Part shown: piece by piece, positions 47,550 through 64,000 of the stretch
Numbering within the stretch: the first letter of the stretch is position 1
How the letters are laid out: every line of letters begins with the position of its first letter
Source of the DNA: a virus
Lineage: Duplodnaviria > Heunggongvirae > Uroviricota > Caudoviricetes
DNA length: 64,000 nt
Virus record (IMG/VR): IMGVR_UViG_3300001688_000696
Direction: 5' to 3' (one strand)
Program-made: the position numbers and the translations under genes
The notes under the pieces: generated by a model
What the model saw: the letters and a program-made list of their open reading frames with translations, nothing else
Told to the model about the DNA's origin: nothing
The model's database searches: none

Positions 47550-47905
47550 GGTTGGATGACCGGGCGTTCGCTCGACCCCGGTAGCGAGGAGAGAGGAAAT
47601 TCCGCACTTCAAGGGCAGGGTGGTGGTTAACGGCCACCTGTGGTAACACAGAAACAGGGCCACAGAAACAAACCGCCGATGGGGTAGGAGTCTACTCACA
47701 GGCAAGGGTGAAAAGGTGGTGTAAGAGACCACCGGCGACCGCAGTGATGCGGCGGCCAGGCATCCTTCACTCGAAGCAAGGCAAATTGGGGCGAGGTGCT
47801 GCCCGCACCGCTTGAGCCTCTGGTAGCCGCAAAGACCTTCATGGCAACATGAAGGCAAGACAGATGAACGTCTAAAACAGAATGCGGATTACGGGTTGTC
47901 CAACC
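47550..47905 (+). ncRNA. rnpB: Bacterial type A RNase P RNA
   Basis: P1 ggttggatgacc/ggttgtccaacc; GAGGAAATTCCGCA...ACAGAATGCGGATTA P4; P8 UAACG loop; P9 GUAA; agggccacagaaac; gggtgaaaaggtggtgtaagagaccacc; GGU in L15; P18 GCAA hairpin. Confidence 0.95.
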
Positions 47906-47934
47906 AAAAAGCGGCAGATTACCTGTCGCTTTTT
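47906..47934 (+). terminator. Terminator of rnpB
   Basis: aaaaagcggcag-attac-ctgtcgcttttt. Confidence 0.8.
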
Positions 47935-56686: not shown

Positions 56687-56791
56687 TGCTGAAGAAAAGC
56701 ACCCGAAAAACCGGGTGCTTTTCTTTTTTTAATTGACGACCGTGCAGGCTTGAAGTATAATTTTTATAAAATAACCATTCCAGGATTGTTT

Positions 56792-57541
56792 ATGTCATTC
56801 TCCCGAAAACTAAACAAAAAGCTCCCCAATCCGACCAGTGTTCCCGCAGATAAAGTCCTTATTTTCGCTTATCATTGGGAAGAAGCGGAGTTTTTTCGCT
56901 TTGCCGACTGTTATGTCATGCGCCAGTGGACGAAAAAACACGGCTGGAAGCTGATGGTCAACTGCAAAAATCGCCTGCCGGATTGGGACGACCTCGCCCA
57001 TGCCCGTTATAGCTTAGTCCCCAATCGGCTTTTTATGGCGGCGGTAGCCCCATCGGTGGAATCATGGGATGCTTTCAAAGCCAACGGCTTCTTCGTCTTT
57101 GAAATTCCCAACGAGGAAGAAATGCTGGCATATCTCGCCCATCATGGGGGATGGAAAAAGCCGGAAACATATCCATATTTGCGGCAGATAAATTGGAAGA
57201 AAATGCCACCGATACAGCCCGCTTCTGTCCCTGATGGCTACGAATTTTTCAGCCTGTTCAAGCCGACCACGCGGTTTTATTCGATAGGGGGCAGGGGGCA
57301 AATTCAGGTAGATTGGGAACCGGATAAGGGCTGGTCGCTGCATATGACCATGCGCCGCCGATACCCCACATGGGAAGAAATGGCTTATGCCCGCACCTGT
57401 CTCATTCCACCGGCTGCCCACATGTCATTGCTGATGCCGCCTGACGACAAATATATCAACGCCAGCCCGTACAATCTTATTTTGACGCAAACGCTGGGGC
57501 TGGACGAAATCGAGCGCAATTTTGAACGGGGAAAGCTATAA
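56792..57541 (+). CDS. Hypothetical protein with phage-type C-terminal R-x-P-T-W-E-E-M domain
   Basis: WSLHMTMRRRYPTWEEMAYAR...PPDDKYIN. Confidence 0.6.
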   Translation: MSFSRKLNKKLPNPTSVPADKVLIFAYHWEEAEFFRFADCYVMRQWTKKHGWKLMVNCKNRLPDWDDLAHARYSLVPNRLFMAAVAPSVESWDAFKANGFFVFEIPNEEEMLAYLAHHGGWKKPETYPYLRQINWKKMPPIQPASVPDGYEFFSLFKPTTRFYSIGGRGQIQVDWEPDKGWSLHMTMRRRYPTWEEMAYARTCLIPPAAHMSLLMPPDDKYINASPYNLILTQTLGLDEIERNFERGKL

Positions 57542-57619: not shown

Positions 57620-57648
57620 TTGACAAACAGCAAACTTTTTGCTATAAT
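57620..57648 (+). promoter_or_regulatory. Consensus sigma-70 promoter upstream of tRNA region
   Basis: TTGACA-N17-TATAAT, perfect. Confidence 0.9.
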
Positions 57649-57675
57649 ATGTATACAATCAATTTTTTGGAAGGA

Positions 57676-57789
57676 ATGGAAATGGTCAACGTCTGGTTCG
57701 GAATTATCGTAAATATTGCAAACATTGCGGGTAATGCCGCAGATGTTGACGTTTCTGTGTCCCACGAGGGAAAAGGGGTGAAGAAATAA
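57676..57789 (+). CDS. 37-aa peptide / possible leader
   Basis: SD GGAAGGA; MEMVNVWFGIIVNIANIAGNAADVDVSVSHEGKGVKK. Confidence 0.4.
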   Translation: MEMVNVWFGIIVNIANIAGNAADVDVSVSHEGKGVKK

Positions 57790-57818
57790 CCGCATCCCCA
57801 AAAGTGTAAGCAAACCTC

Positions 57819-57851
57819 GCCGGGACACCACAAGTGCCCCGGCTTTTTTTT
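57819..57851 (+). terminator. Intrinsic terminator just before tRNA array
   Basis: gccggg..cccggc followed by T8. Confidence 0.75.
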
Positions 57852-57971
57852 CGGAACTTTAATAACCGAATATACAGCAATTATCAGAGTTTCCTTTGCG
57901 GCTGGAGGGGCGGTTCGATACCGGCAGCCCGCCCCTCCCCCAGCGGCGGGGAAATTGGTTGGAATAAACTT

Positions 57972-58043
57972 TCCTCTCTAGCTTAATGGCAGAGCGTCCG
58001 GCTGTTAACCGGGAAGGTGCAGGTTCGAGTCCTGCGGGAGGAG
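57972..58043 (+). tRNA. tRNA-Asn(GTT)
   Basis: Cloverleaf; loop CT-GTT-AA; no encoded CCA. Confidence 0.92.
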
Positions 58044-58048
58044 CTGAT

Positions 58049-58120
58049 GCGGTAATAGGTCAACGGTAGACTGCCTGCTTCCCAAGCAGGAGGTTGCGAG
58101 TTCAAGTCTCGCTTACCGCT
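58049..58120 (+). tRNA. tRNA-Gly(CCC)
   Basis: GCGGTAA/TTACCGC; loop TT-CCC-AA; U73. Confidence 0.92.
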
Positions 58121-58126
58121 TCCGAT

Positions 58127-58197
58127 GCGGGCATAGTTCAACGGTAGAACATCGCCTTGCCATGGCGAAAATACGAGTTCGAGTCTCGTTGTCCGCT
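58127..58197 (+). tRNA. tRNA-Gly(GCC)
   Basis: GCGGGCA/TGTCCGC; loop TT-GCC-AT. Confidence 0.92.
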
Positions 58198-58198
58198 C

Positions 58199-58269
58199 TG
58201 CGGAGTAGAGAAGTGGCATCTCGACGGCCTCATAAGCCGTGAACGCAGGTTCGAGTCCTGCCTCCGCTA
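58199..58269 (+). tRNA. tRNA-Met(CAT), initiator-like
   Basis: 1:72 mismatch (T:T), A11-U24; loop CT-CAT-AA. Confidence 0.88.
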
Positions 58270-58275
58270 CCTGAT

Positions 58276-58349
58276 GCACCCGTGGTGTAGTGGTCTAACA
58301 TGCGGCCCTGTCAAGGCTGAGAACGCCAGTTCAAATCTGGTCGGGTGCG
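58276..58349 (+). tRNA. tRNA-Asp(GTC)
   Basis: GCACCCG/CGGGTGC, G73; loop CT-GTC-AA. Confidence 0.92.
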
Positions 58350-58354
58350 CCTAT

Positions 58355-58425
58355 GGGCGTGTAGTTCAATGGGAGAACGACGCTGTCGCATAGCGTAAAT
58401 CTGGGTTCGACCCCCAGCATGTCCA
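58355..58425 (+). tRNA. tRNA-Ala(CGC)
   Basis: G3.U70 pair; loop GT-CGC-AT. Confidence 0.85.
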
Positions 58426-58640
58426 CTCGCCAAAGTCTACCGCCATAGACAATGGCGACAGGTTTATCATCAAAGTCCGGTGGCGGCCGGGCGGAGAAAA
58501 TTTCCCTGACCGGCGTGAAACCCAATGGCGAGGCGTAGCGCCAGTGAAAAGAACCAAAGTCGTGTGGTGTAAGTTCGTAATAGCACACATCCATAGGGTG
58601 ATGAAGTCCGGTAAGCCGTGACCCCGGCGCGATTTTGGTC
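58426..58640 (+). ncRNA. Unidentified structured RNA candidate in tRNA array
   Basis: Two closed domains (ctcgcca/tggcgag; accaaagtcg/cgattttggt) with internal hairpins. Confidence 0.4.
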
Positions 58641-58667
58641 AATTTTTTAACCAGTAGGGCGTGATTT

Positions 58668-58738
58668 GGTCGGGTCTTTCAACGGCAGGAAACCGTTCTG
58701 ATAAAGCGGTAATGAGTGTTCGACTCACTCCCTGACCA
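58668..58738 (+). tRNA. tRNA-Ile(GAT), divergent
   Basis: GGTCGGG/CCTGACC; loop CT-GAT-AA; weak D-stem. Confidence 0.8.
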
Positions 58739-58745
58739 CTACTAT

Positions 58746-58819
58746 GGACTTTTAGCTCAGCCGGTTAGAGCGCCGCCTTGACATGGCGGGGGTCGTGCGT
58801 TCAAGTCGCACAAAGTCCA
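58746..58819 (+). tRNA. tRNA-Val(GAC)
   Basis: GGACTTT/AAAGTCC; loop TT-GAC-AT. Confidence 0.92.
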
Positions 58820-58824
58820 CTGAT

Positions 58825-58897
58825 GGGCGATTAGTTTAGCAGTCAGAACGCCCGGTTCACATCCGGGAGGTCGCAGGTGCAAATCCTGCATTGCCCA
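58825..58897 (+). tRNA. tRNA-Val(CAC)
   Basis: GGGCGAT/ATTGCCC; loop TT-CAC-AT; T-loop TGCAAAT. Confidence 0.88.
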
Positions 58898-58918
58898 CTC
58901 CGTTTGTTTCGTCGGATA

Positions 58919-58985
58919 GCACAGTTCGTCTAAGTGGTAGGACAGACCCAAGGGTCAGATGCAGGTTCGAATCCTGCACTGTGCG
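58919..58985 (+). ncRNA. tRNA-like RNA lacking an anticodon loop (67 nt)
   Basis: Acceptor GCACAGT/ACTGTGC, D-arm and T-arm GCAGG-TTCGAAT-CCTGC intact; anticodon arm is GACCC-AA-GGGTC. Confidence 0.8.
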
Positions 58986-59107
58986 AACGAAGGCGGCAGA
59001 CGAACAACGGGAAGCCGTCACTTCTCGGTTGGTAATCTGGTAGATAGGCGGAAGGCGGAGGCTTGACGGGGCTGATGCTGACAAATATCTACCGGGTTAT
59101 CATGAAT

Positions 59108-59181
59108 GGGCGGTTAGCTCAGGTGGTTAGAGCGCTGTGCTGATAACGCAGAGGTCGAAGGTTCGAATCCTTCACCGCCCA
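59108..59181 (+). tRNA. tRNA-Ile(GAT)
   Basis: Canonical GGGCGGT/ACCGCCC; loop CT-GAT-AA. Confidence 0.95.
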
Positions 59182-59191
59182 CCTTTGAGAT

Positions 59192-59264
59192 GGGTACATG
59201 GCGTTAATTGGGAACGCACCGCCTTTGCACGGCGGAGTTGTGGGTTCGAGTCCCACTGTATCCA
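59192..59264 (+). tRNA. tRNA-Ala(TGC)
   Basis: G3.U70; loop TT-TGC-AC. Confidence 0.92.
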
Positions 59265-59317
59265 CTATGGACGGTTCTAAAGAATTGTTTTGACTGGTCG
59301 GGTGCTGGTAAAAATTT

Positions 59318-59392
59318 GGGTGCTTAGCTCAGTTGGTCAGAGCGCCTCGTTTACACCGAGGAGGTCGGGGGGTTCGAGACCCTCAGCGCCCA
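59318..59392 (+). tRNA. tRNA-Val(TAC)
   Basis: GGGTGCT/AGCGCCC; loop TT-TAC-AC. Confidence 0.92.
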
Positions 59393-59396
59393 CTCG

Positions 59397-59583
59397 TCCC
59401 TGGCTCATCTCCTTGGCGCGCCGCAAAAAGTTATAAGGAGATATTGCCGCAACAATACACGGCGGATTCGCGATAATGCCGTTGAGGTAGTACGTGGTGA
59501 CACGGAATTGCCAGCAAAACTGGATGGTAGGAAACCAGGGATGAGCTGTGTCGGCGGGATTTCGATAACTATCCCGCCGACAC
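59397..59583 (+). ncRNA. Unidentified multibranch RNA candidate in tRNA array
   Basis: tccctgg/ccaggga closes five hairpins and is followed by a 13-bp hairpin. Confidence 0.4.
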
Positions 59584-59971
59584 GACAATAATCGAAATCG
59601 GTTTTTGAAGGCGGTAATGCGATAAAAAAGAGTTGGAATCAGGTTGGCGAACCGGACTTTTATCGCAATCAGCAAAATTTCCAAATCCTGCTGTCTTTTG
59701 ACCGGCCTTTGCTGACGGGCGCAAGTTTTTGGAACTGCTGGTACAGGAAAGCGCAAACGTAAGTCGCAATCTAATTTTCTTCTTGAACGAAGCCAAATTT
59801 GAGCCGTTCAAACAGGAACAGGTGTCCCTGCGGCAGTTGGTAGCCAACCTATTGGCGGTGAATACTGGTTGGTGAATACGGATGAAAATGGTTTTGCGAG
59901 CTGGTATTGCAAATATTCGCTTTCGCCAGCGGAATTTCCAGAAAAATATTTACTGTCTGAATAACAATTGC

Positions 59972-60042
59972 GCGGGCGTGATGTAACGGTAGCATGACTG
60001 CCCTCCAAGCAGCTCGTGTCGGTTCAAATCCGGCCGTCCGCT
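59972..60042 (+). tRNA. tRNA-Gly(TCC)
   Basis: GCGGGCG/CGTCCGC; loop CC-TCC-AA. Confidence 0.88.
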
Positions 60043-60067
60043 TATTTGGGAACAAACTAAAATCTGA

Positions 60068-60138
60068 AGGGGCGTAGTTTAATGGCAAAATGGCCGTCTC
60101 CAAAATGGCTGTTGGGAGTTCGATTCTCTCCGCCCCTG
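60068..60138 (+). tRNA. tRNA-Trp(CCA)
   Basis: AGGGGCG/CGCCCCT, G73; loop CT-CCA-AA. Confidence 0.92.
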
Positions 60139-60143
60139 TTGAT

Positions 60144-60215
60144 GGGCGCGTAGTTTAATCGGGAAAACGCATCAATGGCATTGATGTGACGCTGGTTCGA
60201 TTCCAGTCGCGTCCA
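60144..60215 (+). tRNA. tRNA-Ala(GGC)
   Basis: G3.U70; loop AT-GGC-AT with the A32-U38 typical of Ala(GGC). Confidence 0.92.
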
Positions 60216-60272
60216 CTTTCCTGTTTGTTTGCTAACCATGTGGAAATGGCAGCGGAGCGGCAGACAGAAATC

Positions 60273-60301
60273 AAAAAAGCAGGCGTGGTGCCTGCTTTTT
60301 T
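60273..60301 (+). terminator. Terminator ending tRNA array
   Basis: aaaaaagcaggc-gtggt-gcctgctttttt. Confidence 0.8.
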
Positions 60302-60882
60302 GATTTTACCCCGATGTTTTATCGAAAAAACTGAACAGAAAACTGTTTTTAGGAAACGAGGGATGCTGTTTCTGCCATTAGGCTGTTGATTTTTTTTCGA
60401 TTCCTACAGCCATTAAATTGGTCTAACAATTCCTTTGTTCTTTTTGCATGCATTGCCAGCGCCTTTTTTTTTGCTCTGGCGTAAGTTCCCGCCCAGTTTC
60501 ATATCTTTTAGGGCAGTGACAATTCTCGCCCAATTATGCCAAAGGGCGGTGCCATCGAGACTGTTTAGACGATTGGGAACACTAAAGTTTTCTATTGTTG
60601 CCAATCATTCAACGGCTTCTCCCCCAGAGGAATAAGATAATCGACCTGTTGCTCGATTAGTACGCCTAGCGGTATTTTTGCCAACAAAACGCCATTTTCG
60701 TCCTTTTGAAGAGGGCGAAAATGGAATGCAAACCGATTTACCAACTGGCAAAAAATACAAGCCGAAGCAACGGAGCAAGTGGTAGTTATGCCTTGCTGCC
60801 AGCAATCAAGCCAAAGGTTGTAGGCGGCGTCAAAATCGACGTCAGGACGCAACTTGTTTTGAATGTCATCATCCGCCGAAGG

Positions 60883-61278
60883 ATGAAAACGATTCAATCT
60901 GTGCTGAACTTAAATTTTCGTTCTCGGAAAGCCTTGCTGGAAAACGGCTGGAAGGAATACCTTCAATTTGATAACGCCGGATACGTTTACGAAAAGGATG
61001 GGGTGATTTTTAGGGTTAAGAAGCAGACCCCAGAGTTTGCGGTTAGTGACCGGCTGGTTGCCAGACTGCAAATTCGTTTATCACAGCATGAGTTGGAATC
61101 GATTGGCGATTCGTCACTAGTGCAGACCATCCCGACCGGCGAATCATTTTTAAACCTTACACTGACAGATGGAGAAGCCTGCCCGTGGCAGAATGGCAAC
61201 CCGCTTGTTCATCAGGAATTGTCCCTCAATAATCTCCAGCAATGGCTGGATAACTACCAACCGGAGCTGGTTTCCTAA
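60883..61278 (+). CDS. Hypothetical protein
   Basis: ATG 60883 with SD GAAGG; frame open from 60706. Confidence 0.55.
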   Translation: MKTIQSVLNLNFRSRKALLENGWKEYLQFDNAGYVYEKDGVIFRVKKQTPEFAVSDRLVARLQIRLSQHELESIGDSSLVQTIPTGESFLNLTLTDGEACPWQNGNPLVHQELSLNNLQQWLDNYQPELVS

Positions 61279-61402
61279 GCTGTTTCGCGTCCAAAACACA
61301 AATGCCGCCAGCTATATCTATATTTTCGTCATCCATGGTGGAGGTAGCGAAAAATGGAATGTTCCGGTAAAACACAAACTTGCAAAAATATTCAGGAAGG
61401 AC

Positions 61403-62311
61403 ATGGCGGCACTGTGGTGGGGGGTGCCAGCAAAACAAAAAATTTTTGAGGGCGAAGAAGCGCACCAGGTGCTTTGCGACTATTTTCAATTTGCACTGCC
61501 CAATCCCTGTGCGGCGGTTATTGAATGGTGCAACTTCGGATACAAAAGGATAAACGGCATCATTCGCACTCGTGGCGATGCTTCCGTTATTCTTGAATCA
61601 ACGATTGGCATGTCGAGTTACAGCCAATCTCAGCGGTTGGAGCGCTATGAAGAATTCAACCTGGAATGGTGGGAAAATTCTGTTTATGAACACATCGAAG
61701 AATTGGATGCCGTCCTGTCCAGCGTTCAACTGCCCGTTCCCGTCCGTGCTTATCGCGGTGTCTCGGTTTATGATTCTGCCCGCTGGATTAATGCGAAGCC
61801 GGGGGATATACAGGAAATAGACACCTTTTCTTCCCTTTCTTTGGACGAAAAGATTGCCGACCACTTTGCCACGCTCCCCGATTCAGATAATAACTACGGA
61901 AAACCGGTTGATGGCGGTGTTTTGCTGGAGATTGAACTTCCGGCAGGAACGCCCGGCATTTATATTCCGGGATTGGCTTCGTGGAATGACAACCGAATTA
62001 ATAGAAATGTCAGAGAAAAAGAACTGCTGATTCCTAGAAATGTCATTTTCGAGGTTGTGTCCAGAGAACGAGTCTCGTCTGAACGCGCCCCATCTGGCGA
62101 GCTGGTCAAAGTCAAGGTGCGCCTGACCGGGTTTTCTCAAAACAAGGAAGTGCCTCGCAGAAGTACGGATTTGTTCAAAGAACAAGCTGAAAAGCGCATT
62201 CAAGAGCTGGTGAATGATAACAGTGTGCAGGCGGTTTTGGGGATTGATGCCCCGGATACGCTGCGAGCTACTATTGAAAAAATGATGGAAAAGGTGGAAG
62301 GACGGGTTTAA
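61403..62311 (+). CDS. VIP2/Alt-like (R-S-E clade) ADP-ribosyltransferase (start uncertain; frame open from 61169)
   Basis: GYKRINGIIR, RAYRGV, TFSSLSL, LLEIELPAGTPGIYI, EKELLIPRN (ExE). Confidence 0.85.
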   Translation: MAALWWGVPAKQKIFEGEEAHQVLCDYFQFALPNPCAAVIEWCNFGYKRINGIIRTRGDASVILESTIGMSSYSQSQRLERYEEFNLEWWENSVYEHIEELDAVLSSVQLPVPVRAYRGVSVYDSARWINAKPGDIQEIDTFSSLSLDEKIADHFATLPDSDNNYGKPVDGGVLLEIELPAGTPGIYIPGLASWNDNRINRNVREKELLIPRNVIFEVVSRERVSSERAPSGELVKVKVRLTGFSQNKEVPRRSTDLFKEQAEKRIQELVNDNSVQAVLGIDAPDTLRATIEKMMEKVEGRV

Positions 62312-62330
62312 AGCTTCGAGCTATCGCTAT

Positions 62331-62993
62331 GTGACTGGTGATGATGAAGAAAAAATTGGACAGCTATCTGCCATTACCAGAGCGCAGTACGCCTGCTTAG
62401 GGGGACTGATTGAGGCAATTCGCAACGGAGATAAACTTCCACCAATGGCAAGAGGTGAAGACATTGCCTATCATTCCTATCATTTTGCTTCCGAAGCGAT
62501 AGGGGAGACAGCCGCCGAAATCAAAGACCCGTTGCAAACGGCGCTCGACGCGGTGCGTAAACTGGTGGGGGATTTCCCTGAAGATGACAGGTCGCGTGTG
62601 GATGAAACGGTGCGCAGGTCGTCTGTCTGGAAGCGAGATGACTTTTCCAATCGGGGGAAAGCGGTTTTTGCCCTTATGAAAGGACTGCGGGCGTCAGGAG
62701 TAGAAATTGGGACAATGAAAAACATTCCATCAGATAACTTCAGATTTTCCAAGTGGTTGGGATTCTATCAGCAATATTATCCAAACATGCAATGGGTAAA
62801 ATCGGTTGGGGCTTCTTGGGGAGAACGACCATCGTCAAAATCTAAACGGCTGGCAGTGTGTATCCCCAATTCTATTAGTGCAAAAGAAATGGTAATTATT
62901 CGCTGCACAATAGCCAGCAGCGCCATGCAGCGGAAAAGTGGAAAGCAGATGAAGCCCGATATGGAAAAAATGCTTTTTATCCTGGTGGTATAG
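62331..62993 (+). CDS. Hypothetical protein
   Basis: ORF following the ART; frame continues 46 codons past the TAG. Confidence 0.5.
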   Translation: MTGDDEEKIGQLSAITRAQYACLGGLIEAIRNGDKLPPMARGEDIAYHSYHFASEAIGETAAEIKDPLQTALDAVRKLVGDFPEDDRSRVDETVRRSSVWKRDDFSNRGKAVFALMKGLRASGVEIGTMKNIPSDNFRFSKWLGFYQQYYPNMQWVKSVGASWGERPSSKSKRLAVCIPNSISAKEMVIIRCTIASSAMQRKSGKQMKPDMEKMLFILVV

Positions 62994-63371: not shown

Positions 63372-64000
63372 CTAATCTTTTTCGGTGTAATCACGGTACA
63401 GCCGCAAAATATGGGCAATGTTGAAAGTACCTTTGCCGTGATACAGGTCAACTAAACTTCCCACATACGGGCGCAGCTTCTTATCTGCGTTCGGGTCGGT
63501 AAAAATTTTCTTTTTGAGTTCGCCGTAGGACGCACCCGGGCTTTCGCTCATATAACGCTTCGCCAGCTCAGAAGCTGACTGCCAGTGAGAGAAAATCTCC
63601 GCACACAGGTCGTCAGCCCCTCCCAAATACCCATCAAAACGGTCGTTCAAATATTTGCTAAAGTCAGCGACCACAGTCTTGAATCTTTCTTCCGAAAAAG
63701 CATCCTTTGGCTTGATTTGGGTCACATCGAGGATTTCCTGCGGCAGAGAATTGACAAGACGTGAAACCTTTGCGTATTTGTTGGCTGCCATCATCACGCG
63801 GTTGGTTGCAAACCACCACGGTGTTTTGAATTTGATGCGCAGGATATTACCGGGGACACGTGTGTTCCCATTTGTGGCTTCCTTCATCCTGATGGTCGCC
63901 ACGAAGCCCTCTGCATTTTCCAATTTTTCCGTGTAGGCTTTGACCTCTGCGAAGCTCTTGAACTGATAAACTTTCGGAAAAAACAGCGGCGGTTCTTTCT
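63372..64000 (-). CDS. T4 Rnl1-like RNA ligase, C-terminal part (5'-truncated by window edge)
   Basis: Frame is open to the window end: ...FPKVYQFKSFAEVKAYTEKLENAEGFVAT...LRIKFKTPWW, with nucleotidyltransferase motif IV (EGFV) and V (RxKxK). Confidence 0.7.
   Translation of the reverse strand, partial: KEPPLFFPKVYQFKSFAEVKAYTEKLENAEGFVATIRMKEATNGNTRVPGNILRIKFKTPWWFATNRVMMAANKYAKVSRLVNSLPQEILDVTQIKPKDAFSEERFKTVVADFSKYLNDRFDGYLGGADDLCAEIFSHWQSASELAKRYMSESPGASYGELKKKIFTDPNADKKLRPYVGSLVDLYHGKGTFNIAHILRLYRDYTEKD

Follow-up and report, generated by a model that had tools for sequence, protein, structure and literature searches.

A mobile, compact tRNA array without encoded CCA ends, with junctions that probably follow the general bacterial RNase P consensus

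A tRNA gene array lies near the genes of an RNase P RNA and an RNA ligase on a mobile element, and the question arises whether its junctions are made for the element's own RNase P. The stretch of DNA analysed here (the window) has a length of 64,000 nucleotides and belongs to a 399,701-bp contig, which occurs in anaerobic digesters (biogas reactors). The source is a giant plasmid-like element. RecA, ParA, DnaB, SbcCD and many orphan genes are encoded in the window, together with a relaxase-like nuclease (Replic_Relax) and a coupling ATPase (weak match). According to this gene content, with ParA, the relaxase-like nuclease and the weakly matched coupling ATPase, the window looks conjugative. 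The first-pass annotation proposed that the junctions of the array are tailored to the element's RNase P, and that the array and the ligase make up a self-contained system of tRNA maturation and repair, complete except for a CCA-adding enzyme. The two genes on which this proposal depends are real. The type A RNase P RNA (P RNA; Rfam, 230.7 bits) is located at 47552–47907 on the plus strand, 10 kb upstream of the array. The 3′ part of the T4 Rnl1-family RNA ligase gene (488 aa) occupies 63372–64000 on the minus strand, opposite to the array and 3.1 kb downstream of it, and the product is assigned to the Rnl1 type by PF09511 (E 1.4e-18, 68 bits).

ARAGORN and Rfam each detected 15 tRNAs on the plus strand at 57972–60215. 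These tRNAs occupy 2.24 kb of one strand, with a promoter before and a terminator-like hairpin after them, and the order of the isoacceptors is non-periodic. A sigma-70-type promoter with an extended −10 element (57620–57648, plus strand, consensus match 12/12) likely drives the array. A leader ORF of 37 codons follows on the same strand (57676–57789). Of the first 26 residues of this ORF, 24 belong to amino acids for which the array has a tRNA. After the leader ORF, a hairpin and a U-run are present near 57817–57852 (plus strand), which form a candidate attenuator.

The array genes, all on the plus strand, are arranged in groups. The group at 57972–58425 consists of Asn-GTT, Gly-CCC, Gly-GCC, Met-CAT, Asp-GTC and Ala-CGC, separated in order by CTGAT, TCCGAT, C, CCTGAT and CCTAT. 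The tRNA Met-CAT has a U1:U72 mismatch and is initiator-like. After a 242-nt spacer (58426–58667) without an Rfam family, Ile-GAT, Val-GAC and Val-CAC are located at 58668–58897 with the spacers CTACTAT and CTGAT. This Ile-GAT is atypical, with a weak D arm and the lowest Rfam score of the array (50.5). The tRNA-like unit at 58919–58985 has a cloverleaf fold (z = −3.1), in which the acceptor, D and T arms are intact and a 4-nt loop replaces the anticodon loop. Its leader ends with UA, and its trailer starts with AAC. The group Ile-GAT, Ala-TGC and Val-TAC at 59108–59392 (ARAGORN and Rfam) has gaps of 10 and 53 nt. A 579-nt spacer (59393–59971), to which Rfam assigned no family either, precedes Gly-TCC, Trp-CCA and Ala-GGC at 59972–60215, which are separated by 25 nt and by TTGAT. 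The array is closed by a strong terminator-like hairpin at 60266–60306 (plus strand), which is flanked by A and T runs (z = −4.6 for 60216–60320).

RNA-library contigs in three studies extend over much of the array, and RNA ends, strand and level are not readable from such contigs. The P RNA is also covered, and this cover comes partly from other organisms. Contigs of two studies start at 57677 and 57679, just past the promoter, and one DNA contig continues through this position. These starts are a weak hint of array transcription. The strength of the promoter and the leader ORF suggest that the array may be expressed as an inducible burst.

Eight near-identical copies of the element were compared, and the leaders and trailers of the array are identical in 8/8. 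Therefore, an assembly artefact at the junctions is ruled out, and these strain copies are too alike for any test of spacer conservation. A search of IMG/VR with ARH, ligase, RecA, the tRNA-like unit, tRNA-Ile and the P4 motif of the P RNA as queries gave no close relative of the element. When plasmids and phages were searched by BLAST with the array, only short, tRNA-sized matches were obtained.

The tRNA ends were set by the T-loop and the acceptor pairing before N(−1), N(−2) and N74–75 were scored. With the ends fixed by structure, CCA is encoded in 0/16 units (15 tRNAs and the one tRNA-like unit). U(−1) is present in 12/16 units (p = 2.7e-5) and A(−2)U(−1) in 9/16 (p = 3e-8), both against the local base composition. 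Gly-GCC U73 and Met U1 are separated by a lone C at 58198, which counts both as C74 for tRNA-Gly(GCC) and as N(−1) for tRNA-Met. The absence of CCA, the two leader features and the lone C had been noticed in the first-pass annotation, and the counts agree. The spacers had also been described as often 4–6 nt, which is correct in part. The 15 gaps are 5, 6, 1, 6, 5, 242, 7, 5, 21, 122, 10, 53, 579, 25 and 5 nt. Six of them are 5–6 nt and none is 4 nt; eight are at most 7 nt, and the other seven are 10–579 nt. Among the short spacers, CTGAT occurs twice, and the others are TCCGAT, C, CCTGAT, CCTAT, CTACTAT and TTGAT. One feature had not been reported. The trailers open with C74-pyrimidine75 (C74Y75) in 12 of the 16 units (p = 4e-9), and N76 is unbiased. 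Bacterial RNase P favours U(−1), as the annotation had stated, and A(−2) as well (PMC10731613, PMC9433436). With 8/15 gaps of at most 7 nt and with the above frequencies of U(−1) and AU, the array has the short gaps and RNase P-optimal sites of a valV-valW-type polycistron.

If the junctions were matched to the element's own RNase P, its P RNA might have altered substrate contacts. The element P RNA retains CAAG in J5/15 (the A248 equivalent) and GGU in L15, and its J18/2 is AGACAGAUG. The RCC sequence of a substrate pairs with the L15 GGU of RNase P (PMC10731613), and the element P RNA keeps this GGU although none of the 16 array substrates encodes CCA. In J18/2, A is located at the position of E. 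coli G332, as in B. subtilis, and this A-G type is found in 19/48 chromosomal comparators. Among 49 chromosomal P RNAs, the substrate-contact sites of the element P RNA are ordinary. For P RNAs with A at the G332 position, a preference for U or A at N(−4) has been proposed (PMC9433436). In the array leaders, 9/16 have U or A at N(−4), compared with 0.48 in the background (p = 0.35), which is no match, and n = 16 could miss a mild preference. Thus, no altered contact of the P RNA matched by the substrates was found, as both the GGU and the A248 motif are present and N(−4) is unbiased. The element P RNA probably adds processing capacity and not a private specificity.

Arrays on replicons without their own RNase P were then used as comparators. 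Of these 14 arrays, four belong to named replicons and ten to near-complete viral records, none of which matched type A P RNA, type B P RNA or HARP. The viral comparators were picked via one CTGAT junction, and that junction was excluded from the tallies. In the pooled 14 arrays, U(−1) is present in 152/235, AU in 106/235 and C74Y75 in 142/237, and CCA is absent throughout 7/14 of the arrays. The leader features are thus shared by arrays that lack an RNase P of their own. For U(−1), AU and C74Y75, no significant difference was detected between the window and either control group (p 0.11–1). CCA is rarer in the window than in the complete viral group without RNase P (0/16 against 32/132, p = 0.02; the genes are not independent). 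An IMG/VR phage (L140, 196 kb, CheckV 100%) encodes 0 CCA and has U(−1) at 0.78 and AU at 0.67, and neither P RNA nor a CCA enzyme was detected in this complete record. In the array of the Anabaena plasmid pCC7120delta, U(−1) is 22/23, AU is 14/23, and one spacer, CCTAT, is identical to that of the window. Virus Rctr197k has CCA in 0/32 genes and gaps of 0–1 nt, and Streptomyces phage Blueeyedbeauty has a lone C ahead of a tRNA-Met with U1, as in the window. Among the viral spacers of 3–8 nt (n = 140), 105 start with CT or CC and 56 end with AT. These results do not support the proposal that the junctions are tailored to the element's RNase P, since leaders, spacers and single-C junctions of this type also occur in arrays without RNase P and N(−4) is unmatched. 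Because phage and plasmid arrays without RNase P use the same spacers, the array of the window is ordinary and not a self-contained system.

The leader pattern is also found on some chromosomes. The leaders of enterobacterial chromosomal tRNA-Arg(ACG) often end with CCCGAT, CCTGAT or TCCGAT (related genomes). In two chromosomal, mostly CCA-less tRNA sets, U(−1) is only 4/31 and 8/31. The leader bias is therefore not shared by all tRNA sets and may be missing in the host. The pattern is thus typical of arrays and not of all CCA-less genes. Three T. roseum plasmid tRNAs encode CCA in 3/3, and they were dropped as a host baseline as they are few (n = 3) and distant.

The enzymes for maturation were searched for in about 76 kb of the 399,701-bp contig (the window and about 12 kb downstream). 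RnpA, RNase Z, a CCA-adding enzyme and Pnk/Pnkp were not found in this region. For Pnkp, Pfam scans and one tblastn query were used. Two RnpA queries failed to match each other by tblastn, and because this search is weak for RnpA, the negative result for RnpA rests on a Pfam scan with a positive control and on a motif search. After the RNase P cuts, 15/16 precursors would retain trailers of at least 5 nt, and only Gly(GCC) would end as tRNA-C. RNase Z or exonucleases would therefore be needed for 15/16 precursors. The results from about 76 kb do not support a system that is self-contained except for a CCA enzyme. The earlier proposal that one cut matures a 5′ end and nearly finishes the upstream 3′ end holds in its first half, since for host enzymes a cut that frees the upstream tRNA is known from E. 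coli valV-valW (PMC2190699), and a nearly finished 3′ end would be left in 1/16 only. As for repair, the window supplies the ligase half of the T4-type pair (Pnkp plus Rnl1). An Rnl1-type ligase requires a healing kinase-phosphatase for anticodon breaks. In a related element, a 49% identical ligase has a type I-D cas operon and a tmRNA as neighbours; a walk from this ligase reached the tmRNA but no tRNA array, and tRNA genes number 0 within 10 kb on either side of it.

We consider it likely that the locus is a mobile polycistronic tRNA array that requires host enzymes and has its short junctions pared down to the consensus of bacterial RNase P in general. The fit to RNase P in general is preferred because arrays without RNase P share the biases, the P RNA contacts are ordinary and N(−4) is unmatched. 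In the background, E. coli RNase P alone splits valV-valW across a 4-nt gap (PMC2190699), CCA-less precursors are substrates of RNase P in vivo, though cut less efficiently (PMC1874595), and in several phyla the tRNA genes usually lack CCA (PMC5143459). The array would be transcribed as a single RNA, and a holoenzyme of RNase P, built on the host P RNA or on the element P RNA plus the host protein, would cut at each +1 and separate the units. As with E. coli RNase P on valV-valW, each cut would make the downstream 5′ end and free the upstream tRNA. In the consensus junction, C74-Y75 comes after one tRNA and A(−2)U(−1) before the next, so that the spacer may serve RNase P twice. C74-Y75 would allow a CCA-less precursor to pair with the L15 GGU (G293 with C74, and G292 with C or a wobble U), and would leave one C already present. 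Host RNase Z or 3′ exonucleases would trim the trailers of 5–579 nt, and the host CCA-adding enzyme would complete the ends; tRNA-Gly(GCC) alone would be left ready as tRNA-C. C74Y75 could instead reflect preferences of exonucleases or of the CCA enzyme.

The co-adaptation of the leaders to the element's own RNase P, with the RNA ligase completing a self-contained system minus the CCA enzyme, is highly improbable. An intact P RNA within 10 kb and a ligase within 3 kb of the array favour it, as do a leader bias that exceeds that of the two chromosomal sets and the P RNAs located inside the tRNA arrays of three other viruses (L217, L219 and L221). However, AU is not more frequent in arrays with their own P RNA (21/91 against 106/235 in those without; four arrays only, GC-confounded), and a true negative trend is not claimed from these four GC-confounded arrays. 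The unbiased N(−4) despite the B. subtilis-like A, the enzymes not found in about 76 kb, the 15 trailers that still require trimming and the ligase of the related element, which has no tRNA gene within 10 kb, also argue against it. Another explanation is that the spacers are decayed CCA ends and copies of one ancestral junction, propagated by duplication and recombination and under no current selection by RNase P. The trailers resemble degenerate CCA (C74 in 12/16, N76 unbiased), and the spacers CTGAT, CCTGAT, TCCGAT and TTGAT are nearly identical. We nevertheless regard this explanation as quite unlikely, as the flanking tRNAs are different isoacceptors without tandem duplicates, and unrelated phages and plasmids show the CY..AU pattern as well. 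In addition, the downstream tRNA at 1-nt gaps of viral arrays starts with a pyrimidine in 10/15 against 124/526 (p = 6e-4; tRNA class confounds). Such gaps would keep C74Y75, and Gly-C-Met of the window fits this, with the same confounding by tRNA class.

An element P RNA without special specificity may still be needed when the array is switched on, since CCA-less substrates are slow and extra enzyme would clear the burst. This is a reasonable though minor possibility. CCA-less precursors are cut less efficiently, and a higher level of RNase P rescues defects of the CCA interaction (PMC1874595). The strong promoter and the leader ORF suggest the burst, and the RNA-library contigs span both the array and the P RNA (for the P RNA partly from other organisms). 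Against it, most comparable arrays lack their own P RNA (a match was detected in 5/30 records), and the holoenzyme would still compete for the host RnpA. This need for extra enzyme and the general RNase P consensus are mutually compatible. A bolder version seems unlikely to us. In this version, the element P RNA with the host protein would do most of the array cutting once the leader-peptide switch opens, and would beat the host ribozyme on tight, CCA-less precursors; CY..AU would be a two-sided RNase P signal, and the Gly-Met junction would borrow the unpaired U1 of Met as position 75.

The preferred reading, a mobile array with junctions of the general RNase P type, is compared with known systems as follows. 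The kind of array is already known from mobile long tRNA arrays (L-arrays) and from the tRNA clusters of large phages. The closest case is the trn operon on a plasmid of Anabaena PCC 7120 (PMC8421152), which is also a co-oriented polycistron on a mobile element. It shares with the window the short CY..AU spacers including CCTAT, a likely conditional expression and mostly CCA-less genes. It has 26 units, of which 8–9 encode CCA by our own calls, whereas the window has 16 units and 0 CCA. The link to an RNA ligase is made by a co-regulated RtcB in Anabaena and by an Rnl1-type ligase in the window. The control is by a repressor in Anabaena and apparently by a leader peptide in the window, and only the window element carries its own P RNA. 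The formal cut-off for a tRNA array unit is at least 20 tRNA genes (PMC4758250). With 15 genes and one tRNA-like unit, the array of the window is below this cut-off, and it has the co-orientation, the mobility and the non-periodic order of an L-array.

The clusters of large phages (Rctr197k, Blueeyedbeauty and the huge phages of PMC7162821) share with the window the CCA-less genes, gaps of 0–6 nt, the lone C ahead of a tRNA with U as its first nucleotide and, in Blueeyedbeauty, a nearby Rnl1 ligase. A polynucleotide kinase adjoins the ligase in Blueeyedbeauty, and a CCA enzyme is present in 6/12 near-complete viruses tested, whereas the search of about 76 kb of the window element revealed neither. 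The window also looks conjugative, unlike these clusters. In E. coli valV-valW, as proposed for the window, a single RNase P cut at a gap of a few nt yields the downstream 5′ end and releases the upstream tRNA. The E. coli genes encode CCA and exonucleases finish the ends, whereas CCA must be rebuilt in the array of the window. In the CCA-less pathway of B. subtilis (RNase P, RNase Z and CCA-adding enzyme; PMC1874595), CCA-less precursors are likewise cut, trailers are removed and CCA is added. The genes there are chromosomal and just one third of them are CCA-less, whereas the array of the window is mobile and entirely CCA-less.

As read here, the array is one more compact tRNA array, and by itself it matters little. 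The CY..AU and single-C junctions recur in unrelated phage and plasmid arrays regardless of a carried RNase P, and this recurrence was not found stated in the searched literature. The element offers a natural pair, a mobile P RNA and CCA-less substrates, for the question of why mobile elements carry RNase P RNA.

Window 57620–57852, upstream of the tRNA array, carries a promoter, a leader ORF, a hairpin and a U-run in this order. The promoter at the start of this region is a perfect match, and 24 of the first 26 residues of the 37-codon ORF that follows it are amino acids of the array's tRNAs (Met, Val, Asn, Trp, Gly, Ile, Ala and Asp). The layout makes this region a candidate attenuator. A DUF7694 gene (window 56750–57541) is located immediately 5' of the promoter. 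This gene is absent in some strains, as seen from joints in the matching contigs, and it is missing from L001 and L428, two of the loci compared as strains or copies of the element.

Three long spacers are present within the array (window 58426–58667, 58986–59107 and 59393–59971), and none of them matched an Rfam family. The first two spacers lie inside the contigs from RNA libraries in all three studies. In contrast to most tRNAs of the array, the anticodon-less tRNA-like unit (window 58919–58985) lacks both U(-1) and a pyrimidine at position 74. Therefore, this unit may be cut or tailed differently from the real tRNAs. No exact match to the unit was found in IMG/VR. A second tRNA-Ile(GAU) (window 58668–58738) is atypical: its D arm is weak, and it has the lowest Rfam score of all tRNAs in the array. 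The canonical tRNA-Ile(GAU) is located at window 59108. In tRNA-Val(TAC), six G's are observed at window 59363–59368, whereas five are observed in seven of the eight other copies. The extra G is probably a strain variant or a homopolymer error of the window sequence.

Downstream of the array, the ADP-ribosyltransferase-like gene (window 61169–62993) is a single ORF of 532 aa in L418 and L425, but in the window, as in other strains, it is divided between two or three ORFs. In the related element (L099:9863–21167, 111-kb contig), the RNA ligase adjoins a type I-D cas operon, and the element also encodes its own tmRNA.

RNase P RNA is located inside the tRNA array in three other viral records (L217:1425–1961, L219:1430–1910 and L221:1425–1802), where it lies within a few bases of a tRNA. 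Two of these copies, those of L219 and L221, are divergent (47–63 bits, below the Rfam cut-off). RnpA was looked for in three records of this kind and was found in none. Among the viral comparator loci L106–L212, the tRNA after a one-nucleotide gap starts with U or C in 10 of 15 cases, compared with 124 of 526 (p = 6e-4), as if position 75 were supplied by the following tRNA.
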